A stretch of DNA of 64,000 nucleotides from an uncultured Candidatus Saccharibacteria bacterium (GTDB lineage: Bacteria > Patescibacteriota > Minisyncoccia > Phycocordibacterales > CAYSCM01). Location of the stretch: the NCBI GenBank assembly GCA_964429815.1, contig CAYSCM010000001.1, positions 32,001 to 96,000 on the forward strand, written 5' to 3'. Each line of letters starts with the position of its first letter. The stretch's first letter is position 1. Positions 4,432 to 41,689 of this stretch are shown piece after piece. The position numbers and the translations under genes are program-made. The notes under the pieces are model-generated. The model was not told the origin of the DNA. It searched no databases and was given only the letters and a program-made list of their open reading frames with translations.

Positions 4432-5394
4432 ATGAAGATAGTACGGTGGTCCATACCCAAGCACCTCGATCTGTCGATTGAGATTTCCGGTAGAGAACAT
4501 ATGGCACAGGGAGAAAAGATGGGGTCTACGAAAGCCTTGGATGTCCTGCGCGGAATAACCTTCAGCGGCTCAGCGCCGGCGATACAGTTTGCCGATGTCG
4601 AGTCTTTATTTTCCTTTGTAGAAAAAAAATTTTTACATAAGACATTTGCGGGAGTCGGCATCGAAGTCGGCGCGGGGCCGATGATATTTAGCTCGCTCCT
4701 TACGCGCTCACGACCAAACATTCAACAGATGTATGGAATCGAACTAAGTGGCGGTATCGTAGAATTCATTGCCCCGGGAGTGGTTGATGAATTGCTGGGA
4801 CCCAAGAGTGAAAAGGTAGTCGGGGTCATCGGCAGTTTCGACGCGATGGAGCTTACAAGCGAGAGTGTCGATTTTGTTCTTGATTTTATGTCGCTTCACC
4901 ATGCGACCGACCTCGGAGAGGCGTTCGCCGAATGCTACCGGGTGCTAAAACCAGGCGGCTTCGTTGTTCTTTTTGACAAGGCTCGCCCCGATTCCTTCAC
5001 CTCTCAAGACCTGGAGGGATTGCTCAATACCGAGTACAGCGATGAAGAGAAAAAACGCTTTGGGGTGCCTTCCGGCGAACACTTTACACGCCGGATGAAC
5101 GGGGAAAAAGAATACCGGCTTAAAGATTGGTCGGCGGGGGCCTTAGAGGCCGGTTTCCCGACCCTTATGCATTGGCGACTCGCGCGCACCAACGTGCCGG
5201 GTATCTCAGGATTGTACCGACGTTTGCTTTCTCATGTGCCGCTACGCACCCAGATGGCTACTACCGCTATTGCACAAAGCGTACTGGGCAGCGGCTCAAG
5301 AGTGAAGTTTTCACAAAAAAATTTGGTGTACTCGCGGTACGTGAACCCCTTCCCCCGCGAGATCTCGCTCATGATCGCGCACAAGGCTTACTAA
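4432..5394 (+). CDS. Class I SAM-dependent methyltransferase (type 11-like)
   Basis: GVGIEVGAGPM is a glycine-rich motif I. VLKPGGFVVLFD is the post-II/III region typical of small-molecule methyltransferases. Confidence 0.7.
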   Translation: MKIVRWSIPKHLDLSIEISGREHMAQGEKMGSTKALDVLRGITFSGSAPAIQFADVESLFSFVEKKFLHKTFAGVGIEVGAGPMIFSSLLTRSRPNIQQMYGIELSGGIVEFIAPGVVDELLGPKSEKVVGVIGSFDAMELTSESVDFVLDFMSLHHATDLGEAFAECYRVLKPGGFVVLFDKARPDSFTSQDLEGLLNTEYSDEEKKRFGVPSGEHFTRRMNGEKEYRLKDWSAGALEAGFPTLMHWRLARTNVPGISGLYRRLLSHVPLRTQMATTAIAQSVLGSGSRVKFSQKNLVYSRYVNPFPREISLMIAHKAY

Positions 5395-6299
5395 CTTCTC
5401 CACGCGCTCAGGTCGCGCCCGGTAAATGCCTCGAGTTTTTGCAGTTCGGGTTCATAGCGAGCGCGGAGGGCTTCTTTGAGCTTCGGGTCGAGCGTCCCGT
5501 AGCTAGCTTCCCCGGTCCCCGCCCTCGTGTCGATGGAGCGCACTACTTTTTGGTGGAGCGGCGTTTTGCGGAAGAGGGAGAGGAGGGGCTCTCCGAATGG
5601 CAGGGCTTTGAGTAGCTTCCGCGCCCTGAGCGCGTGTCTGCGCAAGAGTGTCGCTCCGGCGGAATTTATGGTCGTGGCGAGCGAGGGCGGCACGAACGAG
5701 GCATCGACGCCGATGAAAGAAAAGATATCTCTCATATATTTTTTTGGGTCGGCACGCATATCGTCATAGAACGTAATGAGTATCTGGTCGCGGGAAAATA
5801 CCTTGAGATAATTTTCGAGGTGCTTCATATAGAAGCTCTCCTCGATAAACGACGGTTTAGTTTTAATAATTTCCTCAAGGGTTGGGAGCTCATGTGCGCC
5901 CTTTAGCTTCGTGTACATGTAGTGGGAAAAAAAGCGCTCCGTAGGGTTTCGCAATACCGCAATGATCTTCGCTTTAGGAAAATGTGTACGGAGGCGCTCC
6001 GGCACCTCGGGTGCGTGAATATAGATAGGAGTGACTTCTCCGTATACCCTCTTCCCTACACAGTGACCAAAATGTTCAAAATACCCTTCGAGAGCGCCGT
6101 TGTATTTTGTTTTCCCCACCAAATCAGTGCGCCAGAAACTTTGCGTCGTGTTAAAAAAGTTGAGCTCTTTGGGTTCGGAAACACAGACCTCGGGGTGCTC
6201 TTTGAGACATTGGTGGAGCCAGGTGGTGCCCGTCCGCTCCGGACCAATCACGAAGAAATCAATGGAAAAAGGCTTTGCTGTAGATGAAATGGTACTCAT
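5391..6299 (-). CDS. Sulfotransferase family protein (PAPS-dependent, carbohydrate sulfotransferase-like)
   Basis: FFVIGPERTGTTWL matches the 5'-PSB motif (PKSGTTW). IAVLRNPTERFFSHY matches the 3'-PB motif (RNPxD...S.Y). The start overlaps the upstream gene stop in an ATGA arrangement. Confidence 0.75.
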   Translation of the reverse strand: MSTISSTAKPFSIDFFVIGPERTGTTWLHQCLKEHPEVCVSEPKELNFFNTTQSFWRTDLVGKTKYNGALEGYFEHFGHCVGKRVYGEVTPIYIHAPEVPERLRTHFPKAKIIAVLRNPTERFFSHYMYTKLKGAHELPTLEEIIKTKPSFIEESFYMKHLENYLKVFSRDQILITFYDDMRADPKKYMRDIFSFIGVDASFVPPSLATTINSAGATLLRRHALRARKLLKALPFGEPLLSLFRKTPLHQKVVRSIDTRAGTGEASYGTLDPKLKEALRARYEPELQKLEAFTGRDLSAWRS

Positions 6300-6931
6300 G
6301 AGGCCGTCGGGATGGATTCCTTGTCGCGGTTTGAGAAAAACAGGTAGTCGACGATGGCGTGGAAGAAAACCGCGTGAAGCGCCTCAACGGGACCGTAGGC
6401 ACCTTTTCCTGTCTCAATGATTATCTTGTGGTGACAGAGGCTCTTCGCTTTGCCTCCGTCAAAACCAAGAACGCCTATCGCCGTGCCGCCCTTAGCGCAT
6501 ATGTACTCGATCGCGCGAAGCACATTGGGGGAATTGCCACTTGCGGAAATGACGATGAGCACATCGTCGGGACGAAAAATGTGCTTAAGCTGGTCCGCAA
6601 AAACGTTCTCGTAGCCGACATCGTTCCCGAGCGCCGTCACGGCGGCGATATTGTTGAGCGCGTGAATACGAAACGGCTTTTCTTCCGTACCACCCCCGTT
6701 CGTGGTGAGATCGGCCGCAAAGTGAGCCGCCATGGCAGCGCTCCCCCCGTTGCCGGCGATGTAGATCGTAGAGCCCCTCTCCCGGGCCTTTTGAAGCACG
6801 TCGATAATCTCCTCGACCGCTTTGGAATCTACGGCGGAAGCAAGCTCGAAGGCATGCGCAAGATACCCTTCCATAAATTCGGGTACCGATCCTTTTGTCT
6901 TTTGATAGATGGTATCGACGTGTCCTCTCAT
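6296..6931 (-). CDS. gmhA: Phosphoheptose isomerase (sedoheptulose-7-phosphate isomerase, SIS domain)
   Basis: It is a single SIS-domain protein of about 211 aa. STIYIAGNGGSAAMAAHFAADL is the GmhA signature. It is translationally coupled on both sides. Confidence 0.8.
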   Translation of the reverse strand: MRGHVDTIYQKTKGSVPEFMEGYLAHAFELASAVDSKAVEEIIDVLQKARERGSTIYIAGNGGSAAMAAHFAADLTTNGGGTEEKPFRIHALNNIAAVTALGNDVGYENVFADQLKHIFRPDDVLIVISASGNSPNVLRAIEYICAKGGTAIGVLGFDGGKAKSLCHHKIIIETGKGAYGPVEALHAVFFHAIVDYLFFSNRDKESIPTAS

Positions 6932-7932
6932 AGCGTTGTGAGCACCCCGCGGATGAGCTTCCCTTCCTCGAGGTCTTTGAGGGCGGCTCCTATCTCGTCG
7001 AAGGAATACTCTTTCGTAAGTAACTTATCCAAGCACATGACCTTCGGGTTTTCAACGTATTCACGCGCGTAGCGAGGAATGTCGCGGTCGAGCTCGCTCT
7101 CTCCGCCCCAGGTGCCGTAAAGCTTTTTGCCCTTGATGAGCCCGAAAGGGTTGATCGATATGGTTTCCCCGGGCGCAAGGTTTCCTGCAATAACGACGGT
7201 CCCGGCGTCCTTGACCGCGCGGTAGGCGCTCTCCATGGCGCCCTTGTTTCCCGAACACTCGACGGCCACATCGAAATCCTTTCCCTGAAACTCTTCGGCA
7301 GAGATCGCTTCATCGACGCCGAGCTCCTTTTTCGCATGCGCGAGCTTCCACGGAACGACGTCGATCGCGGTAACGTGAGCACCCTTCATGACGGCTCGAA
7401 TGAGTGCACTCGCTCCGATCCCCCCGATGCCGAATATAACCACTCGTTTGCCGTTGAGGTCTCCTAGGCGGTCGATGATACCCATGCCGGTCGGCACCGC
7501 GCACCCAAGAAGTGCCGCAATCGCGGGCTCCACCCCTTTTGACACCTTGGTGACACGATTCTCTGAGACGACCGCAAGCTCGGTAAACGTCGCCACGGAG
7601 CCACCGTTTACCTTCCCTTCTTTGCTTTGATACGTCGGCACCGGAGCGGATATACCCTCTCCAAGGATCCAACTTGCAACCACATAATCTCCGCTCCTTA
7701 CTTTCTGCACGCCTTCTCCGGCCGCGACCACCTCCGCTGCGGCTTCATGTCCCAATAAGTGGGGAATATATTCCGCTCCTTTCCTGCCGCGGATTTCATT
7801 GAGTTGGCTGTGGCAAAGTCCTGTCGCTAGCACTTTAATAAGTACCTGCCCCTTTTGAAGGGAGGGAACCTCAAGCTCCTCGATGGAGAGCGGTCCACCG
7901 ACGACGCGGAGTACTGCAGCGCGCGTTTTCAT
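6928..7932 (-). CDS. Zinc-type alcohol/sugar dehydrogenase (MDR superfamily)
   Basis: GHEAAAEVVAAGEGV is the zinc-ADH GHE motif. GIGGIGASAL is a NAD-binding GxGxxG. The likely start is MKTRAAVL at 7932; the ORF track extends to 7998. Confidence 0.75.
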   Translation of the reverse strand: MKTRAAVLRVVGGPLSIEELEVPSLQKGQVLIKVLATGLCHSQLNEIRGRKGAEYIPHLLGHEAAAEVVAAGEGVQKVRSGDYVVASWILGEGISAPVPTYQSKEGKVNGGSVATFTELAVVSENRVTKVSKGVEPAIAALLGCAVPTGMGIIDRLGDLNGKRVVIFGIGGIGASALIRAVMKGAHVTAIDVVPWKLAHAKKELGVDEAISAEEFQGKDFDVAVECSGNKGAMESAYRAVKDAGTVVIAGNLAPGETISINPFGLIKGKKLYGTWGGESELDRDIPRYAREYVENPKVMCLDKLLTKEYSFDEIGAALKDLEEGKLIRGVLTTL

Positions 7933-7933
7933 G

Positions 7934-8587
7934 CTAGGGGATAAACCAGTAGTAGTCACCCGTGTAGCCGACCTCGGCGAAGAGTTTTTTCCAATCATCG
8001 ACAGATAGGATGGTCTTTGCAGTAAGATTCCACTTCATCATGCGATCCTTCTCTTCTTCATGGTGGTAGGCGTCGACGGTAATGAACGAGTGTTTTCCTT
8101 TCACACGCTCAATCTCTCGAAGAGCCTCTTTACACTCAGGCAGTGGTAGGTTGTGAATGGTGTTAATCGAAATCACGAGATCGTAGGATTTATCCGCAAA
8201 TTGACTAAGATTTCTTGCATCTCCAACCGATACTGCGCCCGCAATTGAGGGCATGGCATTTTCGATAGCGTAGGAGGAAACATCAATACCGCGAACCACC
8301 ATGTGGGGAAGCCAATAGAGAAAATCATTAAGCATAAATCCCTTAGCACACCCGACATCAAGTACCGAAGAGTTGTTGTTGAGTCCGTAGTAATTTATGA
8401 AATCCCGAACCACCGGTACCCACCTCCCATCATAGCGGAAGCCGCCGTAGCCCTGATCCCTGGTGCCATCAAAAAACTCCCTGCCAAACTTTCGGGCAGT
8501 AGCAACATCCTCAGGAGACTTTTGTCCTCGAGCTTCAATGTTGCGTTTGGCTTTTGGATATTTCGAAAGAAGATCGATTTCTGCCAT
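7934..8587 (-). CDS. SAM-dependent methyltransferase
   Basis: VLDVGCAKG is motif I. It is 217 aa, a size typical of O-antigen/NDP-sugar modifying methyltransferases. Confidence 0.65.
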   Translation of the reverse strand: MAEIDLLSKYPKAKRNIEARGQKSPEDVATARKFGREFFDGTRDQGYGGFRYDGRWVPVVRDFINYYGLNNNSSVLDVGCAKGFMLNDFLYWLPHMVVRGIDVSSYAIENAMPSIAGAVSVGDARNLSQFADKSYDLVISINTIHNLPLPECKEALREIERVKGKHSFITVDAYHHEEEKDRMMKWNLTAKTILSVDDWKKLFAEVGYTGDYYWFIP

Positions 8588-8596
8588 AGTGGTTGG

Positions 8597-10366
8597 TTAT
8601 TTTTTTTCGGGAAGAAGCTTAACCATCATGTTGTCATTGAACTCTTTTCTTGCAAGTAGCGGCTCGGGATCCTCGAGCGGCCGACCGAACTTTACCTGCG
8701 GGATTACGCGGTGCTTCGGGTTAATCTCGATGTTACAAAACACAGGCCCCCTCATCGCGAGCACCTTCTTAACTCCCCCGCTCAACTCGCGGTTCTTCTT
8801 GATCGTAATGGTTTTGAAGCCAAAGGAGGAAGCAATTTTGGCAAAGTCTGGGAACGCAAGTCCTCCCCCTTCCGAAGACGCAAGATACGCCGAATTAAAC
8901 CACTGATCTTGAGTCTGCTGTATCATACTGTAGCCGTGGTTATTCAATACAAAAATCTTGATCGGAAGTTTGTGCTTGAGAAGGGTACTTAACTCTTGCA
9001 AATTCATTTGGAGTGAACCATCTCCGGTTACACAAATAATTGATTTCTTGTTAAGCGCCAGGCTTACCCCAATGCTCGCCGGCAAAGCCCACCCCATCGC
9101 GGTGTTGTTCCAATCGTGGTAAAGACGCTGACCTTTCTTGAAGGAAAATCCCTGCATCATCCATGCGACCGTGCAGCCGGTATCAATGACCATTACTTCG
9201 TTCTGACGCGTGTAGCGAGAGAGCTCCTCAACAAATACATACGGATTGACCCCTTTCTCTTTGTAGTACGCGGGTGGGCACATGGGATATTTTTTCTTCC
9301 ATGCGGCAATACGTCTAAGCCAGGGTGAGATGTCGTTTTTTGGCAAACGTGCGGCGTGCTTTTGAAATGCCTTCAGCAGCTCTTTTGCGTCACCGGAGAT
9401 ACGCACATCGACTTTCAGGCCAAATTTTTTAAACTTCTTAAGTTCGTAGGGGTCAATATCGATGACTATCTTTTTTGCCTCTCGCGCAAACGTGTTGGGA
9501 GGACTACCCGTCGATTTGGTATCAAGACGGCTTCCGATTGAGAGGATCATGTCAGCGTTCTGGACGGCAAAATTGGCAAACCGCGTGCCGTGAGTGCCAA
9601 AGGTGCCGATGCGAAGTGGATGACTCTCTGGCAGGAGATCCCCTGCCCCCCATGTGAGTGCCGCAGGAAAGCCGAGTGTTTCCAAAAGTGAGATGGCCTC
9701 TTTTTCGGCCCCCGCGAGGTGGATTCCCCACCCAAACACAACGACGGGGCGCTTCGCCTGCCGTAGATAGTTTATGCTTCGAGCTACATCAACCGGCGCT
9801 TTCTTCTTCTCGACGGAGGGTGTAAACGAGGGAAGCTCTCCTGGATTAATTTCTCTGCGCTGAATGTCGTCGGGAATATCGAGCACTACGGGTCCTGGCC
9901 TACCACTTCGCGCCAGAAAGATCGCTTTCTCAAGCTCGTAGCGTATGCGCCTCTCATCGGTGATGAGTATCGCGTACTTAGTGATAGGACGATACATTTC
10001 GACCGTTGCCGTTTCTTGAAAACCCACTTGCCGCACGTTGGTATGACCTTTCATCCTAAAGGTGGCTACTTGGCCGGTAATAAATATGACGGGTACCGAA
10101 TCGTAGTAGGCGGAGCACACTCCCGTGATCATGTTCGTAGCACCTGGCCCTGAGGTGGACATCGCTACACCGAGGCCACCCGTGGCCCTCGCGTACCCGT
10201 CGGCAGCCATTGCCCCCGCTTGCTCGTGTCCTGGACAGATGACCTCCATTCCCCCCGTGCGCGCCACCGAATGAATAAGGTGAAGGGATGCTCCGCCGGA
10301 GATGGCAAAGACATGCTTCACCCCTTCTTTGCGGAGAACCTGTGCTACGTAGTCGGTGAGCTTCAT
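8597..10366 (-). CDS. Thiamine-pyrophosphate-dependent enzyme, acetolactate synthase large-subunit-like (YerE-like candidate for sugar C2-branch attachment)
   Basis: The N-terminal MKLTDYVAQVLRKEGVKHVFAISGGASL...GPGATNMITG has the TPP PYR domain. The central domain and C-terminal VTGDGSLQMNLQEL...N TPP-binding GDG motif are also present. It is 589 aa. Confidence 0.85.
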   Translation of the reverse strand: MKLTDYVAQVLRKEGVKHVFAISGGASLHLIHSVARTGGMEVICPGHEQAGAMAADGYARATGGLGVAMSTSGPGATNMITGVCSAYYDSVPVIFITGQVATFRMKGHTNVRQVGFQETATVEMYRPITKYAILITDERRIRYELEKAIFLARSGRPGPVVLDIPDDIQRREINPGELPSFTPSVEKKKAPVDVARSINYLRQAKRPVVVFGWGIHLAGAEKEAISLLETLGFPAALTWGAGDLLPESHPLRIGTFGTHGTRFANFAVQNADMILSIGSRLDTKSTGSPPNTFAREAKKIVIDIDPYELKKFKKFGLKVDVRISGDAKELLKAFQKHAARLPKNDISPWLRRIAAWKKKYPMCPPAYYKEKGVNPYVFVEELSRYTRQNEVMVIDTGCTVAWMMQGFSFKKGQRLYHDWNNTAMGWALPASIGVSLALNKKSIICVTGDGSLQMNLQELSTLLKHKLPIKIFVLNNHGYSMIQQTQDQWFNSAYLASSEGGGLAFPDFAKIASSFGFKTITIKKNRELSGGVKKVLAMRGPVFCNIEINPKHRVIPQVKFGRPLEDPEPLLARKEFNDNMMVKLLPEKK

Positions 10367-10370: not shown

Positions 10371-11228
10371 CTACCAGGGCATCTGCTCCTTAACGCTTAT
10401 AAAGAGTGTCCCGTCACGGTAGCTCTCGGGCATATCGCCGGCTTTTGTGACAAGTCCCCACCCTATCTTCTGCGAGAACAAATTGACGCCGGAGCCTGTA
10501 AAGTGCTTGAAAATGTGCTTGGCATTCTCCGCGGTCCCAACCTCGACCAGGCCGTCACAGCTCTCCCAATCGGAAGCTTCGGTCGAGAGGAGTACTTCCT
10601 TCTCGTGCCCTTCGACGTCCATTTTGATGAGATCAGCGCCGGCGAGAATCGGCCCGAACGCTTCGAGCTCCACGGAGAACATTTCCCGATCCCCGTAGAC
10701 GTCGTGCTTTGCTCCCGAGAGGTGACTCCCCGTAGTGTTGCCGAGCACTCGGGTAAAATCTGCTGAACCCGAGCGACTTGAGACGGCGCTGTTGTGAAGG
10801 CTGGCAGAATTACATCCGTTACGCGCAAGATTTTTTTTGAGGATATCGAAATGAACCGGATCGGGCTCGTAGGAGGAAACCTTAAAACCACAACGACAAA
10901 GGATAATCGAGTGAAGTCCAATATTTGCTCCGAGGTCTACAACGCTCGTATAGCGATTGCGATTGCGCCAGTAAAAACTGAAAATAACGAGTTCATTGAG
11001 GTCAAAGAGATTCCGCGAATCGACATTACCCATGTTGTGGTATGGAAACGAGATATCTCCAAATGGCGGAAAGTGGACCGACTCTTTTGAATCAACGGGA
11101 AAGAGCCTCTCCACTTCCTTCCGAGCTTTGGCGGCACGTTCTTTGAATGGCGCGCTTGTCGGAGTATGAGAGGGTAATTCCTGCGGGAGCGTGGCAAAGA
11201 TATTCTCCAAAAAAGCCGAGGATTCCAT
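10371..11228 (-). CDS. FkbM-family SAM-dependent methyltransferase
   Basis: VVDLGANIG and KMDVEGHE are FkbM-domain hallmarks. Confidence 0.7.
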   Translation of the reverse strand: MESSAFLENIFATLPQELPSHTPTSAPFKERAAKARKEVERLFPVDSKESVHFPPFGDISFPYHNMGNVDSRNLFDLNELVIFSFYWRNRNRYTSVVDLGANIGLHSIILCRCGFKVSSYEPDPVHFDILKKNLARNGCNSASLHNSAVSSRSGSADFTRVLGNTTGSHLSGAKHDVYGDREMFSVELEAFGPILAGADLIKMDVEGHEKEVLLSTEASDWESCDGLVEVGTAENAKHIFKHFTGSGVNLFSQKIGWGLVTKAGDMPESYRDGTLFISVKEQMPW

Positions 11229-12042: not shown

Positions 12043-12215
12043 GACGCGCTCTTTTGGTTGATGACGCTCGCGTTTTTCACGAATATGCCTATACTACACT
12101 ACTGCGCCACCGCAGGTTTCCAACCTACAAAACGCAGTGGAAAAGAAAAATTAATGGGTACGGTGAATTACAACGGGTCGAAACTTGACCCGTCTCTGGT
12201 AGAGTTGTACAGAAC

Positions 12216-13496: not shown

Positions 13497-13508
13497 AAAA
13501 CCTTACTA

Positions 13509-14732: not shown

Positions 14733-14733
14733 G

Positions 14734-15231: not shown

Positions 15232-15233
15232 AG

Positions 15234-25987: not shown

Positions 25988-26022
25988 GGCCGCACCCATA
26001 GGGTGCGGCCGATTTTTACTTT
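25988..26022 (+). terminator. Rho-independent terminator (copy 2, near-identical to 25386-25420)
   Basis: The stem cggccgcaccc-atag-gggtgcggcc is followed by gatttttac. It is the same 36-nt unit as copy 1, with 2 mismatches. Confidence 0.6.
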
Positions 26023-27907: not shown

Positions 27908-27936
27908 GGCGAAAAACTATAACATAAAAATGGCCT

Positions 27937-33283: not shown

Positions 33284-33291
33284 AGGGAAAA

Positions 33292-34515: not shown

Positions 34516-34516
34516 G

Positions 34517-36331
34517 TTAGGTTTTTATGGAAAATGCTTTCGCCCACAGCTGGAACACCAGGAGACTCCACAGGCTTTGGAGATGATATCCGCCTTGCTG
34601 GTGGTCCTTGCGAAGCCGTTCTATCTCATGCCAGTTAAAAAGGCTTTTTGTTTCGACGTAAAATGATGGAGAAAGTACCTCCCTGGCAAATGCTGCGACG
34701 TCGGGACGACGCAGCCACTTTGCGGCTGGAGAAAACCACCCCCTTTTTTCCTGGCTGAGGAGAAACTCCGGCACATGACCGCGGAGCGCCTCTTTGTAGA
34801 GTATTTTTTTATCAAACGACGAAATGAGATCGCTCTGGGATAATCGATCCGCGAAGGAAAGAAGCTCCAGGTCGAGGAGCGGCACGCGCACCTCAAGCCC
34901 CGCGGCCATCCCCATCTTATCGGTACGCAGTAGCGCCTCATCGACAAGCCAATTCTTTCTGTCGACGGCCATGAACTGTTTTTCAAATGACTTCTCTACC
35001 GTCGGGAATCTGTTGCTCAGATATTCGAGGACGGGCTCACTATTGTTGTCACCTTTTTCAAGAATCGCTTGCACAGTATCCTCCGTTTGCAACATGAACC
35101 ACGCGAAACGCTCTCCTCCCTCTTCTGTCGACAGGGGTTTTAGTTTTTTATTGAGCAACCCGAGCTTTGAAAATAGCGGAATGCGACGAAGTAAACTTAG
35201 CTGATGTGATTTGCGATAACGCTCATATCCACCAAAGAGTTCATCGCCCCCGTCACCTGCGAGAGCTACTGCAACCTGCGGTTTTGTGAATTCCGCAAGT
35301 TTGAGCATAGAAAGCGACGTCGGATTCCAGTTTGGATCATCGAGATGCCAAACCGCCTTTTCGAGATAGGGGATAACCTCTGTGGCGGAAAAGAGGACAC
35401 TATGATGTTCAACACCAAACTGTGCCGCAGCGCGCTTGGCAAGTTCAAGATCTGCATTGAATTTTTCTTTTTGCTCTCCCTCCTCAAGTTCAAACCCTAC
35501 GCTAAACGTTTTCAGTTTGTGTCCCGTCTCAAAGAGAGCTGCCAGGATAGCATTTGAATCTAGGCCTCCCGAAAGATAGAGCCCTACTGGGCGATCAGAA
35601 ACAAGTTGGCGACTTACGCCCCCCTTCAACACTTCCCATAGCTTGTGCGCGCGGTCTGTTCGGTCCGCTGGCAGGAAAATCTCTCTCTCATACGCTTGGT
35701 ATGTGCTAAGTGATATTTCGCCACGACGGTACTTGAGCACCTGACCTGGTTGAATACGAGATATGCTCTCAAACATTGTCGTGGGTCCTGGCGTATAGAG
35801 AAATCGGAAATAGAGATTGAGCGAATCGCGATTAAGTTTTCGAGTAATTCCCGTTTCGAGGAGCGCCTTGATCTCCGAAGAAAAAAAGAGCTCGTTATCC
35901 TTTTCTAGATAGTAAAGAGGCTTGATGCCGACCGGGTCGCGCACGAGATAGAGAGTTTCTTCTCTCTCGTCCCAGAGCGCAAAAGCAAACATGCCATTGA
36001 AACGTGAGAGGCAGTCAACTCCCCATCTCTCCCACGCCGCCAAGATAACTTCGGTATCGCTCTCGCTCCGAAAGGGGTAGGCCGGCAATTCTTTCTTGAT
36101 ATCGCGGTAGTTGTAGAGTTCTCCGTTGTAGGTAATGGTGAATCGCCCGTCGTGGCTTGCCATCGGCTGTTTGCCACCCTCGGAGAGGTCAATGATAGCG
36201 AGGCGATTGTGCCCCAAGGTTACTTTCCCAGCCCAAAGCCCCGTGCCGTCGGGGCCCCGGTGGTTGGTTTCTTTATTCATCCGCTCAACAAGAGCGGAGT
36301 GACTTCCCGTACATCCGTTAATGCCGCACAT
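34517..36331 (-). CDS. Asparagine synthetase (glutamine-hydrolysing) family amidotransferase (AsnB/WbpS-like)
   Basis: The N-terminal MCGI has the Ntn Cys2. SGGLDS is the PP-loop ATP pyrophosphatase motif. It is 604 aa. Confidence 0.85.
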   Translation of the reverse strand: MCGINGCTGSHSALVERMNKETNHRGPDGTGLWAGKVTLGHNRLAIIDLSEGGKQPMASHDGRFTITYNGELYNYRDIKKELPAYPFRSESDTEVILAAWERWGVDCLSRFNGMFAFALWDEREETLYLVRDPVGIKPLYYLEKDNELFFSSEIKALLETGITRKLNRDSLNLYFRFLYTPGPTTMFESISRIQPGQVLKYRRGEISLSTYQAYEREIFLPADRTDRAHKLWEVLKGGVSRQLVSDRPVGLYLSGGLDSNAILAALFETGHKLKTFSVGFELEEGEQKEKFNADLELAKRAAAQFGVEHHSVLFSATEVIPYLEKAVWHLDDPNWNPTSLSMLKLAEFTKPQVAVALAGDGGDELFGGYERYRKSHQLSLLRRIPLFSKLGLLNKKLKPLSTEEGGERFAWFMLQTEDTVQAILEKGDNNSEPVLEYLSNRFPTVEKSFEKQFMAVDRKNWLVDEALLRTDKMGMAAGLEVRVPLLDLELLSFADRLSQSDLISSFDKKILYKEALRGHVPEFLLSQEKRGWFSPAAKWLRRPDVAAFAREVLSPSFYVETKSLFNWHEIERLRKDHQQGGYHLQSLWSLLVFQLWAKAFSIKT

Positions 36332-37373
36332 GTTCGATAAGTATAGTCGAAATCGTTTTTACGATGGCTTTGGTGCTGAAGCGCTCTCCCGCCACACGCG
36401 AGAGGTACGCTCCGATCTGGGGGCGGTCGACCGACTCGACGAGCGCACGTATTCGCTCCGCGAGCGCTATGGGGTCGCGTTCGGGAAAGGTGAGACGCGA
36501 GGCGTACTGCCCAAAGTATCCGCTAAACGCGACATTGCTCACGATGGGAGGTGTTCCCGCGGCCATGGATTCGATGACGGCTTTATCGAGGCCGCCGGGC
36601 GGGGTCATATTGACGGAAACGCTCGCCCGACAGTACCACACGGGAAGTCCCTCGTTGGGAATGGAGCCTATAAAACGGACGGTCTTCCCTAGTCCGCGTT
36701 CTTCGACGAGCCTGAGAAGCTTTTTTTCATATGCGCGATCGCTTTCGTGGACCGGAGCTCCAATGAACGTGACGCTGAACCTCTCCTTCCAGTGACGCTT
36801 TAAGATCTCTGCCGCCTCGATGAGCGTATCGCAGTTCTTGATGGGCGTGATACGCCCGACGCTTATGACGGCACGCTCCTCACGCGCAGAGCTCTCGCAG
36901 GCAAAGCGCCCCACCTCGATGCCATGCCCGAGAATGTGAAGTTTCCGCGACGGCAACCGAAAGCTGTAGCGCGATGCGGTTAAGACCGCGTGGCTGAAAA
37001 GATGCGCTACGTAGAGCTTGAGGTTCACCTGCCGATGCGTATACCATAATCCGACCCGCTTTCCCATAAGGCGCCAGGGTATGCCGCCCAAGACGACATA
37101 CTCGGGATTCATGTGAACGAGTACGACGTCGTACGGACGACGGATGGAAAAAATATATTGATAGAAACGCCACAGGTACGTGAGCCTCCCGGCACCTTCC
37201 TCCTTCCCCAGCGAGCGCACATGGACGTTCTCGGGTAGTGTAGCTCCTCCGCGTTCAAGACAGATGACCTCGACGGCCGTAAAGTGCCGTGCGAATTCCT
37301 GCAACCACGATATGACGTACGCTAGAAGATCGTCGTCTTCGTCAATTTTCTGGGTAATAAAGAGGAGTCGCAT
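36318..37373 (-). CDS. Glycosyltransferase family 4
   Basis: GGLDKAVIESMAAGTPPIVSNV is the GT4 C-terminal EX7E region. Confidence 0.7.
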   Translation of the reverse strand: MRLLFITQKIDEDDDLLAYVISWLQEFARHFTAVEVICLERGGATLPENVHVRSLGKEEGAGRLTYLWRFYQYIFSIRRPYDVVLVHMNPEYVVLGGIPWRLMGKRVGLWYTHRQVNLKLYVAHLFSHAVLTASRYSFRLPSRKLHILGHGIEVGRFACESSAREERAVISVGRITPIKNCDTLIEAAEILKRHWKERFSVTFIGAPVHESDRAYEKKLLRLVEERGLGKTVRFIGSIPNEGLPVWYCRASVSVNMTPPGGLDKAVIESMAAGTPPIVSNVAFSGYFGQYASRLTFPERDPIALAERIRALVESVDRPQIGAYLSRVAGERFSTKAIVKTISTILIEHVRH

Positions 37374-37374
37374 G

Positions 37375-38478
37375 TCAGTTCGTGAGAAGGTCGATATAGC
37401 GCTTCAGGTATTCCTTCTTGGTTGCCGCAAAGCCGGTGAGGCCGAGAACGAAATCCCCTGCCGTCGCCCTGCCATCTTTAATGGTCTCTCGCAGTGCGTC
37501 AGCGAACTCATTTATTGAGCGGCCTGCGACGATGGCGGAGCGTGCGCCGAGATTGTAGAGCTCCCGGGCTACGCCTACATCGGTCGACACGAAAGGGCAC
37601 CCGAGTGCCGCGGCTTCGACAAGCGCGAGTCCGTAGCCGTCATAAGCGCTGGTGAAAAGGAGGGCATCCGCGCTTTTATAGAGGCCGCCGAGATTCTCTC
37701 TCCAGCCCATGAATACAACTCTGTCGGAAATACCGAGGTTTTTTGCCCGAAACTCCAAATGTGCCCGGTCACTTCCATCTCCGGCAATACAAAGCCCTAC
37801 CCCTTTCGGCTGCAAGGCTATAACATCAATGGCCAGAGCGATGCCTTTTTCTTTCTCAAGCCGAGCCGCAACAAGCACGTGCTTGCGAAATTGCGGGTAC
37901 ATTTTCTTGAGATCACTACCTTCTTCTTCCCAGAGTTTTTTGAGATCCGTAAATATCGGCAGTACGTGGACGGGAGCTTTCAGGCGGAGGGGCCGTAGCG
38001 AGTCGACTATGCGTTTGCTGACGACGCGTATTGAGTTGGTTTTGGGTAAAAGTATCGTGCCGATGAACACTCGCAGGCGATTGAGCATCGAGAGCGAAGC
38101 AAAATAGGGGCTCAAAAAATCAGTATGGATCTGCGCCTGGAAGCGTGCGCGATGATACCGAGCCAGCCGCCAACCGACGAGCCCCGTCTCGAAGGGGTCT
38201 TGCGTGCTCACGACCGAGACACCCTTGATTTTTTTGCCGATGCGGTAGGCGCCCAACAGGTACAAGAGTCTGTGGCATGCACTCGTCGGATACAGGAAGA
38301 GATTTTCCTCTGCCACAGCAGCAAACCCGTGTCTTTTTGTCGAAAACACGATGACGTGAAGCTCGCTTCCTTTGTGCCTATGTGTTTCGAGCGCGTGAGC
38401 ATACTCCCGCAGGCGCTGCCGCACGGCGGAGCGCTCGTCGAATGCCTTTCGGTCTGTTGATACCATGAGCACCTTCAT
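37375..38478 (-). CDS. Glycosyltransferase family 4
   Basis: YDGYGLALVEAAALGCPFVSTDVG is the GT4 motif. Confidence 0.7.
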   Translation of the reverse strand: MKVLMVSTDRKAFDERSAVRQRLREYAHALETHRHKGSELHVIVFSTKRHGFAAVAEENLFLYPTSACHRLLYLLGAYRIGKKIKGVSVVSTQDPFETGLVGWRLARYHRARFQAQIHTDFLSPYFASLSMLNRLRVFIGTILLPKTNSIRVVSKRIVDSLRPLRLKAPVHVLPIFTDLKKLWEEEGSDLKKMYPQFRKHVLVAARLEKEKGIALAIDVIALQPKGVGLCIAGDGSDRAHLEFRAKNLGISDRVVFMGWRENLGGLYKSADALLFTSAYDGYGLALVEAAALGCPFVSTDVGVARELYNLGARSAIVAGRSINEFADALRETIKDGRATAGDFVLGLTGFAATKKEYLKRYIDLLTN

Positions 38479-39611
38479 ACGTTTTTCTTCAAGAATTCCT
38501 CCACAGCCTCAACCATCTTCGCTTCAGAAAATTTGGCAAGCGAGCGCCTCCCTGCCGCGGAAAGTTTCCCCGCAAGTGAGCGCTCCCCGAGCACCCGGAG
38601 CATCGCGGTCTCCAGGGCTTTCCGATTGTTGTAGGGCACAAGAAGTCCGTTTTTGCCATCCTCGATGACTTCCGGGTTACCACCAACTTTGGTCGTCACG
38701 ATCGGAGTGCCGACGGCAAGGACTTCGAGAAGTTGGTGCGAGAGCCCTTCGTAGCCGGTATTGAGAACAAAAAGGTCCGCCGCTTTGATGTAGCGCAGGA
38801 GAACGTCGCGCTCGAGATTTCCTGCCAGAACGACATTCTCCTCGAGGCCTTTCGTTTCAATGAGCGTCTCAAGAGCTCCTCGCTGTGGCCCGTCCCCGGC
38901 AATCATGAGCTTCACGTTGGGGAATTTTTTACGTAGCGTCGGCACGGCCGAGATGAGGGTCTCAAAACCCTTCCAGGGTACGAGGCGCCCTGCGGACATG
39001 ACAAAAACCCCGTCGAACTGGAGTATCCCGCGCAGTACGTCGCGCCTCCCGGAGACCGCAATATCTTCAACGGCGCTTAAAATGACCTCGATTTTTTTTG
39101 CTTCGATCCCCCACTTCCCTATGACTTTCTTGAAATAGGCGCTCGGCACGATGATGCGCCGCGCCTTGCGGGCGACGTAGCGCTCGACGAAGACGAAGAG
39201 ACGGACAAGCGGGTGCGTTTGTCCCTGCTTTACGAAATCGTCGAGAAGTTCGGTGACACCGAATCGGTTCATGCCCTGCTCCCACGCGAAATCCCCCGCG
39301 ACGCGTAAGAGGAAGGTCTTTTTTCGAAACGAGGCGACGAGTGCAGCCGGGAACCCCACGGAAACGGGGTCGAGGGCGAGAATGGCGTCACAGCTCTCCG
39401 AGAGCTTCCACAGGAGGGCTAGGTACACGAGGTGGCGTACTCCGGGCGGAAACTTCCGGACCTTCCCAAAGTAGGCGACGGAAATTTCGATGCCGCGGCC
39501 GGGGAGGTGTGTGATGAGGCTTTTGGCAAAAGTAGCCGGCCCGCCGACATCAGGGGGGAGAAGCGGGGTCGCTAGCAAGAGCCGCATAGGAGTAGTATAA
39601 CGGCAAACCAT
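38475..39611 (-). CDS. Glycosyltransferase family 4
   Basis: YEGLSHQLLEVLAVGTPIVTTKVGGNPEVIEDGKNGLLV is the GT4 motif. Confidence 0.7.
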   Translation of the reverse strand: MVCRYTTPMRLLLATPLLPPDVGGPATFAKSLITHLPGRGIEISVAYFGKVRKFPPGVRHLVYLALLWKLSESCDAILALDPVSVGFPAALVASFRKKTFLLRVAGDFAWEQGMNRFGVTELLDDFVKQGQTHPLVRLFVFVERYVARKARRIIVPSAYFKKVIGKWGIEAKKIEVILSAVEDIAVSGRRDVLRGILQFDGVFVMSAGRLVPWKGFETLISAVPTLRKKFPNVKLMIAGDGPQRGALETLIETKGLEENVVLAGNLERDVLLRYIKAADLFVLNTGYEGLSHQLLEVLAVGTPIVTTKVGGNPEVIEDGKNGLLVPYNNRKALETAMLRVLGERSLAGKLSAAGRRSLAKFSEAKMVEAVEEFLKKNV

Positions 39612-39620
39612 GGCTCTCGG

Positions 39621-40829
39621 TCAGCGCGAAAGGAGCGGCATAAATACCCTTTCGCGCATACCGGCAGCGACGAGGCTCCAGTCATATTTTTCAAACACGA
39701 GCTTGCGAGCATACTTGACGACTCCCGAGACCTTCTCGGGACCGGCAAGAATATCTTCGACCGCCGCGACGATATCGCTCGGAGAGTCTTTATCGACGGC
39801 CCACCCGGTGGTCGGTTTGTCGGGGTTTCGTTTCGCATCAAACAGGAAGTCCGCAATGCCCCCTTCCTGGGTCCCAATGACGGGAATTCCTGCTGCCATA
39901 GCTTCGATGAATGAATTTCCCATGCCCTCCGAGCGGCTCGGGCGGATGAAAATATCGCACGCTTTGAGATACTTCGGCATCTCGTCATGAGAGAGCTGGC
40001 CGAGGAATTTCACCCGCCTCTCGACCCCAAGCTCCCGCGCAAGGGCCTTTAGTTTTATCTCGTCGGGCCCGACGCCAAAGACGACGAAATGGACACTCTG
40101 TGGAAGGCCGCGCTGTGCGCGTATGACGTCGTCGACAGCGTTTTTGTGGACAAGCCGGGAAGTCGTCACCAGAAAAACATCGCCCTCTTTCTTGCCGAGG
40201 AGCGTCTTCACCGTTTCCATCTCCTCGGGCGGATAGGAGGCCGAGAAACGTTTGGTATCAACGGCGTTCGGGATGATTTCAAGGCGCCCCTTGAAACCTC
40301 GTCGGCGCGCCCAGGAGCCTAAGAACGTGGAGATCGCTTGGATAGTGTCGGCCGTCGTGAAGGCGCGAGAAAAAAGTGGCCATACCGGGCGAGCCAGGCG
40401 TTCGATATGCTCCGGTGGATCACCTTCTTGGAGGGTGAGAATAAACGGGACCTTGGGGTGGAACCACTTGAAAAGCGCCGCGGGGATGCCACATGAGTGC
40501 GCCATCATTGCCCAGATAGCATCGAAGTGATACCTCCGGTGAAGCGAGAGGGCCTTCCAGGCCGCAAGAAACTGAAAGAGATGCTTATTGTAGTGGAGGG
40601 GAAATCGCTTAAGGTCTGCCATCGTGGGGTTCGGACGCGCAGGCCCAATGCGATGGACATACACATTTCCTATTTTTTCTTCCTTGGGAAGGGAGGAGTC
40701 GAATCTCAGGCACACCATGTGAAGTTCAATTTCAGATGTAGCAATGCGATCAGTAATTTCTTTGATAGCCACCTCTGCCCCGCCCACGTGCGGGTAATAG
40801 GTCAGGGAAAAAATGAGTATTCGTTTCAT
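39621..40829 (-). CDS. Glycosyltransferase family 4
   Basis: SEGMGNSFIEAMAAGIPVIGTQEGG is the GT4 motif. The likely start is MKRILIFS at 40829, overlapping the upstream stop; the ORF track extends to 40880. Confidence 0.7.
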   Translation of the reverse strand: MKRILIFSLTYYPHVGGAEVAIKEITDRIATSEIELHMVCLRFDSSLPKEEKIGNVYVHRIGPARPNPTMADLKRFPLHYNKHLFQFLAAWKALSLHRRYHFDAIWAMMAHSCGIPAALFKWFHPKVPFILTLQEGDPPEHIERLARPVWPLFSRAFTTADTIQAISTFLGSWARRRGFKGRLEIIPNAVDTKRFSASYPPEEMETVKTLLGKKEGDVFLVTTSRLVHKNAVDDVIRAQRGLPQSVHFVVFGVGPDEIKLKALARELGVERRVKFLGQLSHDEMPKYLKACDIFIRPSRSEGMGNSFIEAMAAGIPVIGTQEGGIADFLFDAKRNPDKPTTGWAVDKDSPSDIVAAVEDILAGPEKVSGVVKYARKLVFEKYDWSLVAAGMRERVFMPLLSR

Positions 40830-41689
40830 GTGCGCCGCGCTTCCTTGATGTATTCCTCGACGGACTTGGTTATCTTCCACCCGATGGATTCCGACCTACT
40901 GGTATCGATCGCGGAGCTCATACGATTCCCTGCACGCTCGGGAAGCATTTTAATTTCAGTGCCAAACAGTTTCGCAATGTCGAGGATGGAATATTCACGC
41001 ACATCCCCCAAACCATAGTCATCGCCCTCCCCCCTTTCCCCAACAATCACAAGTCCCTCGACAATGTCGTGCACGTGGGTAAAGTTGCGTTTTTGGGTGC
41101 CGGGAGACACGACCGTAAGGGGTTCCCCCGCAAGATATTTTTGTCGGAAGATTTCTATGACCGTACCGTACGCCCCCGCACGTTCACGCGGCCCATACAC
41201 GTTGTAAAAATAGGTGATCGCGTACGGGACGCCAAACCACACGCCGTAGTTATGAACCAGGTCCGTATTGCTTGCCTTACACCACGCATAGGGGCTCTGG
41301 TGCCTCCCAAGCCCATCATCAGCAAATTTTGTGGACGATCCGGCGTAGACGAGTTTTGATCCACGGTTTCGACAGAACTCCACCACCCCAAATGTTCCAA
41401 GTACATTGAGGTCCCATACCAGTGAAGGCTCGTCAAAGCTCTTTTCGACACGGGAATACTCCCCGAGGTGATATACAACATCAGGTTTCTCCGGTATGTG
41501 CGTGTCGATATCTTTGGTATGCCCCTCGCGATAGGTGACTCCAGGGACGTGATTTTCCCTCGAGCCGGTGAAATAGTTATCGAGGGATATGACCTTATGC
41601 CCATCTTTCGCGAGACGTTCACATAAGTGTGAGCCTATGAAACCGGCTCCGCCGGTCACTAGGATGAGTTTTTGTATAGCCAAAGCCAT
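40826..41689 (-). CDS. NAD-dependent epimerase/dehydratase, UDP-glucuronate decarboxylase (UXS)-like
   Basis: ILVTGGAGFIGSHLCERL and LDNYFTGSREN parallel the UXS DNFFTG motif. YAWCK is the YxxxK motif. It is 287 aa. Confidence 0.7.
   Translation of the reverse strand: MALAIQKLILVTGGAGFIGSHLCERLAKDGHKVISLDNYFTGSRENHVPGVTYREGHTKDIDTHIPEKPDVVYHLGEYSRVEKSFDEPSLVWDLNVLGTFGVVEFCRNRGSKLVYAGSSTKFADDGLGRHQSPYAWCKASNTDLVHNYGVWFGVPYAITYFYNVYGPRERAGAYGTVIEIFRQKYLAGEPLTVVSPGTQKRNFTHVHDIVEGLVIVGERGEGDDYGLGDVREYSILDIAKLFGTEIKMLPERAGNRMSSAIDTSRSESIGWKITKSVEEYIKEARRT

Follow-up and report, generated by a model that had tools for sequence, protein, structure and literature searches.

A putative cell-surface glycan locus with a conserved dual-thiamine-enzyme, heptose-type cassette in a Parcubacteria-like bacterium

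Bacteria of the Candidate Phyla Radiation (CPR) have very small genomes and are regarded as living attached to host cells, yet their surface chemistry, which must mediate this attachment, is almost unknown. Here we describe a glycan locus on a 64,000-nucleotide stretch of contig CAYSCM010000001.1 (positions 32,001 to 96,000, referred to as the window), which appears to come from such a bacterium. In kind this is a bacterial surface-polysaccharide locus, and what is unusual is its size in a CPR genome together with a conserved cassette, which pairs two different thiamine-dependent systems for C-C bond formation with heptose-type nucleotide-sugar genes. In total the locus covers 50 kb or more, with about 50 genes, a large investment that would take up several percent of the genome if the inferred size of ~1 Mb is right, and it offers a concrete target for glycan mass spectrometry.

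Organization of the glycan locus

The locus is a genuine, contiguous and tightly packed sugar-biosynthesis region. An open reading frame (ORF) map places 18 minus-strand genes between 5391 and 24669, interrupted solely by the plus-strand Wzx gene (12216-13496), and two further minus-strand operons follow at 26016-29876 (four genes) and 31247-41689 (nine genes). Neighbouring genes share 4-bp ATGA overlaps at six junctions (6296, 6928, 21721, 22818, 29070 and 38475) and 8-bp overlaps at 17310 and 23530, the remaining gaps are mostly 0-16 bp, and coding density reaches 97.6% over 441-41689. Plus-strand genes and gaps of 1.3-1.5 kb mark out four or more transcription units. The glycan genes continue for at least 9 kb past the left edge of the window (contig stretch L002).

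Families were assigned by Pfam, NCBIfam and PDB sequence searches plus a fold search. Because nearly all NCBIfam scores lie below the equivalog cut-offs, the names used here are family-level and not substrate-level, including those that refer to heptose, GDP-mannose and 3'-phosphoadenosine-5'-phosphosulfate (PAPS). The ORFs, strands, minus-strand runs and ATGA couplings given in a first-pass annotation of this DNA were reproduced by the ORF map and a check of the junctions, and the searches upheld almost every call of its family inventory, with no reassignment to unrelated families. Some of its totals changed. Eight GT4 glycosyltransferases and a generic GT-B enzyme had been listed, and the families stand, but the total is eight (six GT4 in 5391-41689, one at 57650-58762, and the GT-B enzyme at 33292-34515). 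Likewise, the two GDP-mannose 4,6-dehydratases (GMDs) are retained, but the extended short-chain dehydrogenases/reductases (SDRs) number five and not six, and the S-adenosylmethionine (SAM) methyltransferases of the class-I/FkbM type number four and not five, beside a C-methyltransferase and a radical SAM enzyme.

The core cassette

The cassette lies at ~6.3-20.3 kb, directly after a sulfotransferase gene. The genes are listed with the number of cassette loci, out of seven compared, in which they recur, where this was counted (NDP, nucleoside diphosphate; ADH, alcohol dehydrogenase; ThDP, thiamine diphosphate; ALS, acetolactate synthase; PDH, pyruvate dehydrogenase).

5391-6299, minus: carbohydrate-type sulfotransferase (Pfam Sulfotransfer_1/3; best PDB matches 3rnl and heparan-sulfate sulfotransferases)
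6296-6931, minus: GmhA-like SIS-domain isomerase, cassette (Pfam SIS_2; NCBIfam gmhA 94.8 bits, cut-off 209; 5/7 loci)
6928-7932, minus: Zn-dependent ADH, cassette (Pfam ADH_N, ADH_zinc_N; 7/7 loci, 38-60% identity)
7934-8587, minus: class-I SAM methyltransferase, cassette (Pfam Methyltransf_31/25/11; 7/7 loci, 54-64% identity)
8597-10366, minus: YerE-like ThDP carboligase (Pfam TPP_enzyme N/M/C; ALS equivalog 449 bits, below the cut-off of 538)
10371-11228, minus: FkbM-family methyltransferase, cassette (Pfam Methyltransf_21; NCBIfam fkbM_fam 78.5 bits, above the cut-off of 37.7; 6/7 loci)
11245-12042, minus: classical SDR, candidate YerF-like branch ketoreductase, cassette (Pfam adh_short; 6/7 loci)
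13509-14732, minus: GT-B glycosyltransferase of the GT9 (heptosyltransferase) fold, 407 aa (assigned by fold match only)
14734-15231, minus: HldC-like heptose-1-phosphate adenylyltransferase (Pfam CTP_transf_like; NCBIfam rfaE_dom_II 112 bits, cut-off 181.5)
15234-16238, minus: extended SDR, NDP-sugar 4,6-dehydratase-like, cassette (NCBIfam dTDP-glucose 4,6-dehydratase 189 bits, cut-off 365; best PDB match RmlB; 7/7 loci)
16250-17317, minus: 2-oxoacid dehydrogenase E1 beta-like subunit, alpha-KADH2-type carboligase (Pfam Transket_pyr, Transketolase_C; PDH E1 beta 280 bits, below 321; 7/7 loci)
17310-18269, minus: E1 alpha-like subunit (Pfam E1_dh 2.7e-68; NCBIfam 326 bits, below 394; 7/7 loci)
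18271-19248, minus: extended SDR, candidate NDP-heptose C4-dehydrogenase or epimerase, cassette (Pfam Epimerase; best PDB matches 6vo6/6vo8, 126.5 bits)
19251-20297, minus: HldA-like PfkB sugar-phosphate kinase (Pfam PfkB; NCBIfam rfaE_dom_I 102 bits, cut-off 345)

The first ThDP enzyme, previously called ALS-like, ranks its PDB matches as 8rph (373 bits), 5ahk (310 bits) and plant acetohydroxyacid synthase (AHAS; ~300 bits). Since 8rph has been linked to JanthE, a YerE-like ketone-accepting carboligase (PMC12188165), this ranking places the enzyme nearest to JanthE among solved structures, rather than to AHAS. The adh_short SDR gene lies two genes away, an RmlB-like SDR and a DegT aminotransferase are encoded in the same operon, and no ilvN, ilvC or ilvD gene was found among the window ORFs. 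Natural fusions of a ThDP enzyme to a class-I methyltransferase, whose genes are neighbours in the window, occur in two other proteins (P0029, 844 aa; P0047, 825 aa) and provide a Rosetta-stone link between the two activities.

The second thiamine-dependent system is the E1 alpha/beta pair, whose genes overlap by 8 bp and lie 1-11 bp from the flanking sugar genes. As for E2/E3 partners, no 2-oxoacid_dh or lipoyl domain was found among the ORFs of the window, to which this search was confined. An origin of the E1 pair and the ALS-like enzyme in central metabolism (PDH, branched-chain amino acids) was rejected for this locus, because E2, E3 and ilv genes are missing, the operon spacing is so tight, and the enzymes are co-conserved with sugar genes in seven of seven loci.

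On the heptose side, the HldC-like and GT9-fold genes stand side by side with a 1-bp gap. Neither the 407-aa protein nor a profile built from it gave a sequence match in Pfam, NCBIfam or the PDB, and Pfam GT9 did not match any of ten distant relatives either. Its AlphaFold2 model (pLDDT 79.5) retrieves the GT9 structures 3tov, 2gt1 and 1psw (WaaC/WaaF) as the top Foldseek hits, with E values of 3.6e-6 to 2.6e-4 and TM scores of 0.43-0.55. The earlier GT9-like call is therefore borne out by fold (3tov, WaaC, WaaF) but not by sequence profiles. The protein belongs to a family of 998 representative clusters (E <=0.001), which includes fusions to GT2, GT4 and TPR domains. The structure 6vo6, the best match of the SDR at 18271-19248, is one that we take to be the Campylobacter jejuni GDP-heptose C4-dehydrogenase Cj1427.

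Conservation of the cassette across phyla

Homologs of the ThDP enzyme at 59-69% identity are found in metagenome-assembled genomes (MAGs) labelled Nomurabacteria, Nitrospirota, Saganbacteria, Elusimicrobia, Chlamydiae and Pirellulales. The neighbourhoods of five ThDP homologs and two metagenome loci (L084, L086, L087, L088, L089, L090 and L091) were compared by tblastn with the window proteins, and cassette proteins recur in these seven loci at 26-65% identity (mostly 43-65%). For the isomerase and NDP-sugar part the recurrent set consists of SIS/GmhA-like, HldA- and HldC-like proteins, a 3beta-HSD-type SDR and the RmlB-like SDR, and for the branching and tailoring part it consists of E1 alpha, E1 beta, the adh_short SDR, the FkbM methyltransferase, the ThDP enzyme, the class-I methyltransferase and the Zn-ADH. 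The cassette accompanies the ThDP homolog in 7/7 loci where the identity of this homolog reaches 51% or more and in 0/8 loci with lower identity. This statistic is based on 15 loci; a metagenome scan with the ThDP enzyme gave only 11. Many cassette loci also contain a B12-radical-SAM gene, CTP_transf_3/HAD (haloacid dehalogenase) genes and NeuB.

The Nomurabacteria locus (L086) additionally shares the TagF-like enzyme (66% identity), DegT (49%), a GT4 (40%), the 407-aa protein (45%), the cytidylyltransferase (75%) and, in part, the sulfotransferase (65%). In none of the cassette loci do the 10-kb flanks contain the right-hand modules of the window (26-41.7 kb). The patchy occurrence of the cassette across phyla suggests that it has spread by horizontal transfer. 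Because the modules differ in their distribution across relatives (the cassette loci as opposed to the Paceibacteria relative L066 and other SecD-linked relatives, described below), the supercluster is a mosaic of a patchy cross-phylum cassette, lineage-ancestral glycosyltransferases and further sugar modules. A literature search of limited reach found no published account of the cassette or of sulfotransferase-rich CPR glycan loci.

Two variations among the cassette loci were also observed. A reversed HldC-HldA fusion, with the adenylyltransferase first, is encoded at 3656-5197 of L084 and at 15805-17367 of L088. In the 'Chlamydiae' MAG (L087) two YhcG/DUF1016 nuclease-like genes lie within the cassette (1960-2994 and 12089-13144) and the RmlB-like gene is shortened to 171 aa, features that hint at gene decay or the activity of mobile elements.

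The ulosonic acid module and the left flank

Genes for a predicted CMP-ulosonic acid module and two further modifying enzymes precede the sulfotransferase gene, and the module extends into the left flank.

441-1028, minus: HAD phosphatase, weakly KdsC/YrbI-like (Pfam Hydrolase_3, E 1.4e-5; NCBIfam KdsC subfamily 53.9 bits, cut-off 107)
1161-1697, plus: KdsC/YrbI-family ulosonate-phosphate phosphatase (TIGR01670 114.5 bits, above the cut-off of 107; KdsC 127.5 bits; Pfam Hydrolase_3)
1738-2454, plus: CMP-ulosonic acid cytidylyltransferase, PseF/NeuA/KdsB-like (Pfam CTP_transf_3 1e-29; NCBIfam PseF 151 bits, cut-off 206)
2565-4307, plus: radical SAM enzyme of the B12-binding class (Pfam Radical_SAM 9e-16; weak B12-binding match, E 0.007)
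4432-5394, plus: class-I SAM methyltransferase (Pfam Methyltransf_11/25)
4392-5390 of L002: NeuB-like synthase (NCBIfam 250 bits, cut-off 400)

The two KdsC-type phosphatases reported near the left edge do both belong to the HAD family (they share 32% identity), but the gene at 441-1028 lies on the minus strand. The cytidylyltransferase is 75% identical to its Nomurabacteria (L086) homolog, and the radical SAM enzyme scores ~70 bits against the BchE, PhpK and Sden_1168 B12-radical-SAM families of NCBIfam. In addition to the NeuB-like synthase, the left flank encodes two D-2-hydroxyacid dehydrogenases, two P-loop (AAA_33) proteins, a cupin, a HAD-IA hydrolase and a second PseF-like cytidylyltransferase, which like that of the window scores ~151 bits. 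At the family level, the NeuB-like synthase, the KdsC-family phosphatase and the PseF-like enzymes would complete the module, of which the first-pass annotation had only a partial view, the NeuB-like gene lying just outside the window.

The AAA_33 proteins are P-loop kinase-like and adjoin the cassette in two CPR genomes (5536-6249 and 6411-7043 of L002, that is, window positions -3304 to -1797; 19916-20650 of L086). They could be candidate sugar kinases or adenosine-5'-phosphosulfate (APS)-type kinases.

The middle and right-hand modules

The remaining genes of the first minus-strand run and the two operons that follow are listed below (UGDH, UDP-glucose dehydrogenase).

20354-21724, minus: TagF-like glycerophosphotransferase (Pfam Glyphos_transf 2e-13)
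21721-22821, minus: DegT-family sugar aminotransferase (Pfam DegT 3.6e-106; NCBIfam PseC-like 284 and ArnB-like 270 bits, both below cut-off)
22818-23537, minus: probable methyltransferase, weak (Pfam Methyltransf_25/2/12, E 1e-5 to 1e-4)
23530-24669, minus: GT4 glycosyltransferase (Pfam Glycos_transf_1 3.5e-37)
24721-25362, plus: NUDIX hydrolase (Pfam NUDIX 1.2e-9)
26016-26996, minus: extended SDR, UXS/ArnA/RmlB-like (Pfam Epimerase 7e-44; NCBIfam all below cut-off; start inferred at MAKRVLITG)
26978-27907, minus: NDP-sugar dehydrogenase-like (UGDH-like) protein, 309 aa, without the C-terminal domain (Pfam UDPG_MGDP_dh, N-terminal and central domains only; NCBIfam profile positions 2-297 of 413)
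27937-29073, minus: GT4 glycosyltransferase (Pfam)
29070-29876, minus: sulfotransferase, Sulfotransfer_3 (Pfam 7.9e-22; weak PDB matches to the CurM sulfotransferase and TPST; motif GSGHSGSTLL)
29975-31243, plus: NDP-hexose 3-C-methyltransferase of the TylCIII/TcaB9/MtmC family (Pfam Methyltransf_14 1e-45, Methyltransf_13 and _23)
31247-32251, minus: GMD paralog 1 (NCBIfam gmd 333.5 bits, cut-off 415)
32252-33283, minus: GMD paralog 2 (NCBIfam gmd 394.8 bits, cut-off 415)
33292-34515, minus: GT-B glycosyltransferase (Pfam Glyco_trans_1_4)
34517-36331, minus: AsnB-type glutamine amidotransferase (NCBIfam asn_synth_AEB 424 bits, above the cut-off of 267; Pfam)
36318-37373, 37375-38478, 38475-39611 and 39621-40829, minus: array of four GT4 glycosyltransferases (Pfam; mutual identity <=34%)
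40826-41689, minus: extended SDR epimerase/dehydratase (Pfam Epimerase 2.5e-44)

The two GMD paralogs are 45% identical to each other, and both are nearest to true GMDs and not to Rmd; an assignment of paralog 1 as an Rmd-type reductase was rejected, since it scores 292 bits against true GMDs in the PDB versus 128 bits against Rmd. The best PDB matches of the C-methyltransferase are MtmC (4rv9, 162 bits) and TcaB9 (116 bits). The GMD pair and the adjacent TylCIII-type enzyme point to a GDP-6-deoxy-3-C-methylhexose as a likely product. No dedicated 4-reductase/epimerase was identified in the window, and GMD paralog 1 or an SDR could act as the reductase. Furthermore, the UGDH-like protein, the SDR and AsnB together suggest a uronamide. 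The UGDH-like gene shares ~19 nt with the start of the next SDR gene, the domain missing from its product is the nucleotide-sugar-binding one, and the gene may be decayed or encode a short variant. Both sulfotransferases of the locus carry a PAPS-loop-like, 5'-phosphosulfate-binding (5'-PSB) motif read from the sequence, which in the enzyme at 5391-6299 is GPERTGTTW.

The GT4 array is collinear with GT4 genes beside a lamin-tail-domain (LTD) and VirD4 gene pair in the Paceibacteria relative L066. In the window, an LTD protein and a VirD4/TraG-like coupling ATPase (41719-44305, minus) abut the cluster; in L066 the pair (12552-15598; 61% and 46% identity) lies between SecF and the GT4 array.

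Assembly, export and the initiating transferase

A flippase gene lies within the first minus-strand run, and a candidate initiating phosphoglycosyl transferase (PGT) is encoded further to the right (TM, transmembrane).

12216-13496, plus: Wzx-type flippase (Pfam Polysacc_synt 1e-16; ~9 TM segments)
55287-57586, minus: epimerase and Bac_transf PGT (56237-57586), candidate initiator (Pfam)
57650-58762, plus: GT4 in the conserved PGT-FtsW block (Pfam; 39/80 relatives)

The order SecF-SecD-(epimerase)-PGT-GT4-FtsW-264-aa protein, which fills 53896-59971, is widely kept in Paceibacteria-type genomes: next to SecD the PGT was found in 46/80, the GT4 in 39/80 and FtsW in 49/80 loci (L004-L083), many of which are cut at contig ends. 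From this distribution the PGT is best classed as a lineage-core gene and not as a cluster-specific one. The first-pass annotation had named this distant PGT, with its epimerase, as the initiating enzyme; both families are confirmed at 55287-57586 by Pfam, within a SecDF-PGT-GT4-FtsW block that is kept across Paceibacteria.

Host lineage and single-organism origin

The host was placed using SecD and the ribosomal RNA genes.

50519-51980: 16S rRNA
60916-61021: 5S rRNA
61464-64000: 23S rRNA, cut by the window end

The closest SecD relatives among 185,579 species genomes searched are 51-60% identical and almost all belong to Patescibacteria/Parcubacteria, including Taylorbacteria, Kaiserbacteria and Paceibacterota. 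The 16S gene is unlinked from the 5S-23S pair (60916-64000), with ~9 kb that contain SecF, SecD, the epimerase, the PGT, the GT4 and FtsW in between. The SecD homology and this unlinked arrangement support a Parcubacteria/Paceibacteria-like CPR host. Consequently, the earlier idea of an episymbiont-like, small-genome host is sustained at the level of lineage, the genome size of ~1 Mb being only inferred. tRNA-Leu and tRNA-Ile are encoded 2 kb away from the 16S gene, but not between 16S and 23S.

It is extremely improbable that the locus is an assembly chimera which joins the loci of several organisms. A dip in GC content to 0.49-0.51 at 8-16 kb and the fact that the nearest homologs of the cassette belong to other phyla would fit such an origin, but GC content varies between 0.49 and 0.57 along the window without a step change, and every 5-kb tetranucleotide profile correlates with that of the whole sequence at 0.82-0.96, the lowest value being at 11-16 kb (Wzx and the GT9-like gene). 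In addition, the per-gene ranges of GC content at third codon positions (GC3) of the cluster and its housekeeping flanks overlap, and operon junctions that cross module borders have overlaps of 4-8 bp. Cluster genes are also present on a 63-kb contig from SRR12313482, on an 8-kb contig from SRR12313479 and on contigs of the 0.2-1 Mb class (the longest contig in the ThDP-enzyme record, drawn from NCBI and Logan sources, measures 501,704 bp), and stretches fetched from two Logan contigs match the window at 100% identity over 20,366, 11,697 and 8,223 nt. A chimeric assembly, a possibility raised with the first-pass annotation, was rejected on the grounds of even composition, overlapping GC3 and identical contigs from separate Sequence Read Archive (SRA) runs.

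A proposed pathway and its alternatives

On balance we consider it probable that this locus, 50 kb or more in length and built from modules with different histories, serves cell-surface glycan synthesis in its Parcubacteria/Paceibacteria-like CPR host, and that the cassette leads to a branched, methylated sugar of the heptose type. From the observed gene families, contiguity, cassette conservation and host lineage we infer the substrates, the order of steps, whether one or several products are made, and the surface location, while sulfation and branching are likewise predicted from the gene families. An ADP-heptose pathway has been reported in Paceibacteria (PMC9166423). The cassette probably builds a carbon-branched, methylated heptose: the GmhA-, HldA- and HldC-like enzymes and a HAD phosphatase would produce an ADP-heptose-type nucleotide sugar, which the RmlB-like 4,6-dehydratase and a second SDR would convert to a 4-keto intermediate. 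The YerE-like carboligase, the E1 alpha/beta carboligase, or both, could then add an acyl or hydroxyalkyl branch derived from 2-oxo acids to the ketone, and the adh_short SDR and the Zn-ADH may reduce this branch. The FkbM and class-I methyltransferases are predicted to methylate the sugar, DegT to aminate it and a sulfotransferase to sulfate it, and the GT9-fold transferase, encoded beside HldC, would transfer the product.

The other modules would contribute further components. The NeuB-like, KdsC-family and PseF-like enzymes may form a CMP-ulosonic acid, which the B12-radical-SAM enzyme and a methyltransferase could modify; the GMD paralogs and the C-methyltransferase may yield a GDP-6-deoxy-3-C-methylhexose of the virenose or evalose type; and the UGDH-like protein, an SDR and AsnB could supply a uronic acid amide. 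Seven GT-B transferases, the TagF-like phosphotransferase and the second sulfotransferase would build and decorate the chain on a lipid carrier, which is presumably primed by the lineage-conserved PGT, and Wzx would flip the product.

Several observations weigh against this pathway. Nearly all NCBIfam matches fall below the equivalog cut-offs, and GmhA- and HldC-like genes are absent from some cassette loci. In the window there is no GmhB-type HAD phosphatase (both HADs are KdsC-type), no PAPS-synthesis gene, and no identified ManB or ManC for the supply of GDP-mannose. Neither Wzy nor an ABC exporter was recognised, in agreement with the first-pass annotation. Wzx is the lone multi-TM protein in 441-41689, and the 9-kb left flank adds no other. 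Pfam matched neither Wzy nor Wzz, and no ligase, oligosaccharyltransferase or ABC exporter was found in the searched region. The PGT lies 15 kb from the cluster and is conserved in relatives without the cluster nearby. Finally, the two ThDP systems need not both act on the sugar and could instead supply a donor metabolite.

It is possible, though we doubt it, that several independent glycan loci lie side by side, each of which feeds a different glycoconjugate (an S-layer or pilin glycan, a teichoic-acid-like polymer, a capsule); examples would be the heptose/ThDP cassette with its own Wzx, GT9-like, TagF-like and GT4 genes, the lineage-ancestral GT4 array, and the GDP-deoxyhexose module. Such an arrangement would accommodate the patchiness of the cassette across phyla next to a GT4 array that is collinear by LTD-VirD4 in a Paceibacteria relative, the lack of the right-hand modules in the 10-kb flanks of all cassette loci, and the division into at least four transcription units by plus-strand genes and 1.3-1.5 kb gaps. 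The 50 kb hold a single flippase, however, with no second exporter or initiating transferase, the strands are nearly uniformly co-directional with 97.6% coding sequence, and a single large repeat unit would account just as well for the number of glycosyltransferases (eight, in addition to the GT9-like and TagF-like enzymes).

The identity of the cassette product and the class of the whole locus can also be read differently. An end product in the form of a CMP-activated higher ulosonic acid, instead of an ADP-linked branched heptose, appears unlikely; here the NeuB-like enzyme would condense a heptose or other aldose phosphate with phosphoenolpyruvate, the KdsC-like HAD would remove the phosphate, the PseF-like enzyme would activate the product, and the ThDP enzymes and reductases would tailor the acid or its acyl groups. 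CTP_transf_3 and KdsC-type HAD genes do adjoin the SIS/Zn-ADH end of the cassette in L086 and are fused in L084, NeuB and CTP_transf_3 follow the cassette in L087, and all three families occur in the window or just to its left. Against this, HldC-like and GT9-fold genes 1 bp apart argue for an ADP-sugar donor, and three loci (L088, L089 and L090) have the cassette without a CMP module within their flanks; both donors may also coexist, like Kdo and heptose in the inner core of lipopolysaccharide (LPS). Highly improbable, in turn, is a secondary-metabolite cluster for a glycosylated antibiotic-like compound. E1 alpha/beta branching, TylCIII-type C-methylation, DegT, B12-radical SAM and many methyltransferases are hallmarks of antibiotic deoxysugars (PMC12247030), but the ~50 genes include no polyketide synthase, nonribosomal peptide synthetase, terpene or other aglycone genes, Wzx, the TagF-like enzyme and eight GT-B transferases of the polymer type are present with a PGT nearby, and the annotated Coxiella O-antigen region contains related gene sets.

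Comparison with known systems

In gene content, compared by published annotations alone, the closest described system to the locus is the phase-I O-antigen ('virenose') region of Coxiella burnetii (cbu0674-cbu0706), several genes of which have been inferred to be horizontally acquired. Its annotations include a phosphoheptose isomerase (CBU0674), epimerase/dehydratases (0676, 0677 and 0681), a UDP-glucose dehydrogenase (0680), methyltransferases (0682 and 0683), 'pyruvate dehydrogenase' E1 subunits (0686, 0692 and 0693), a GMD (0689), a TylCIII-like C-methyltransferase (0691) and an aminotransferase (0696). CBU0678 is an HldE-type kinase/adenylyltransferase with reversed domains that is essential for phase-I LPS, and it shares its HldC-HldA order with the cassette loci L084 and L088. 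The Coxiella annotations consulted list no YerE-like ThDP enzyme, sulfotransferase, B12-radical-SAM enzyme, NeuB, GT9-like protein or Wzx, all of which are found in the window locus or its left flank. Furthermore, Coxiella is a diderm that carries the product on LPS, while the host here is a CPR bacterium. To our knowledge, CPR bacteria are generally held to lack LPS.

If the proposed chemistry is correct, the cassette would provide a new branched higher sugar as well as new ketone-accepting carboligases of biocatalytic interest, and a testable hypothesis for unexplained genes of this virulence-determining region. Tentatively, and with more doubt than confidence, the 12-13-gene cassette, often accompanied by the GT9-fold transferase and a CMP-ulosonate module, could represent a horizontally spread pathway to a new class of heptose-derived higher sugar with ThDP-installed branches. 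Such a pathway would occur in six or more phylum-level lineages (CPR, Elusimicrobia, Planctomycetes, Saganbacteria, the 'Chlamydiae' MAG and probably Coxiella) and would account for the long-unassigned 'PDH/HldE-like' genes of the Coxiella region.

Carboligases of both types have precedents. In LPS, YerE-like enzymes attach acyl branches to NDP-4-keto-deoxysugars in partnership with the SDR reductase YerF (PMC9306805, PMC12247030). Like the locus, these pathways (yersiniose, erwiniose, caryophyllose; JanthE/PpYerE) have an ALS-superfamily ThDP gene beside an SDR reductase and NDP-4-keto-sugar genes in an envelope glycan locus. Their acceptors, however, are CDP-3,6-dideoxy-4-keto-hexoses from the CDP-glucose pathway, the genes of which are absent here; the window locus has an HldA/HldC/GmhA-like context and a second ThDP system (E1 alpha/beta). 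Stand-alone E1 alpha/beta pairs ('alpha-KADH2') add acetyl branches to antibiotic sugars (PMC12247030), as in the aldgamycin, kibdelomycin (KbDH-alpha/beta), avilamycin and paulomycin systems, where the pair likewise resides in a deoxysugar operon without E2/E3. These enzymes belong to actinomycete secondary metabolism, whereas the pair described here lies in a Wzx/PGT-type CPR glycan locus and is co-conserved with a YerE-like enzyme; the likeness is one of gene context. The resemblance to antibiotic-sugar pathways that was noticed at first pass is apt in both respects, given that the ThDP enzyme is nearest to JanthE and the E1 pair is of the alpha-KADH2 type.

The logic of the LPS inner core (CMP-Kdo by KdsC/KdsB, ADP-heptose by GmhA/HldE, and the GT9 transferases WaaC/WaaF) also has its family counterparts together in the locus. 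In contrast to inner-core systems, the window holds none of the Lpx, Waa, Lpt or KdsA genes, none of the heptose enzymes reaches its equivalog cut-off, and the GT9-like protein goes unseen by Pfam GT9. In C. jejuni, 4-keto NDP-heptose intermediates arise through SDR dehydratases and dehydrogenases, among them the GDP-heptose C4-dehydrogenase Cj1427 (PMC10680097); this capsular heptose tailoring uses GDP-heptose, whereas ADP-heptose is proposed here.

Other genes in the flanks

Two minor features lie to the right of the cluster. A 274-aa ORF between the 16S gene and SecF (52387-53211, minus) has ~7 predicted TM segments and no Pfam match; it overlaps the 3' end of SecF, which suggests that its start is probably further downstream. 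Just beyond the cluster, a DUF4015 protein, putatively glycoside hydrolase-like, is encoded at 44620-45975 (minus; 289 bits).

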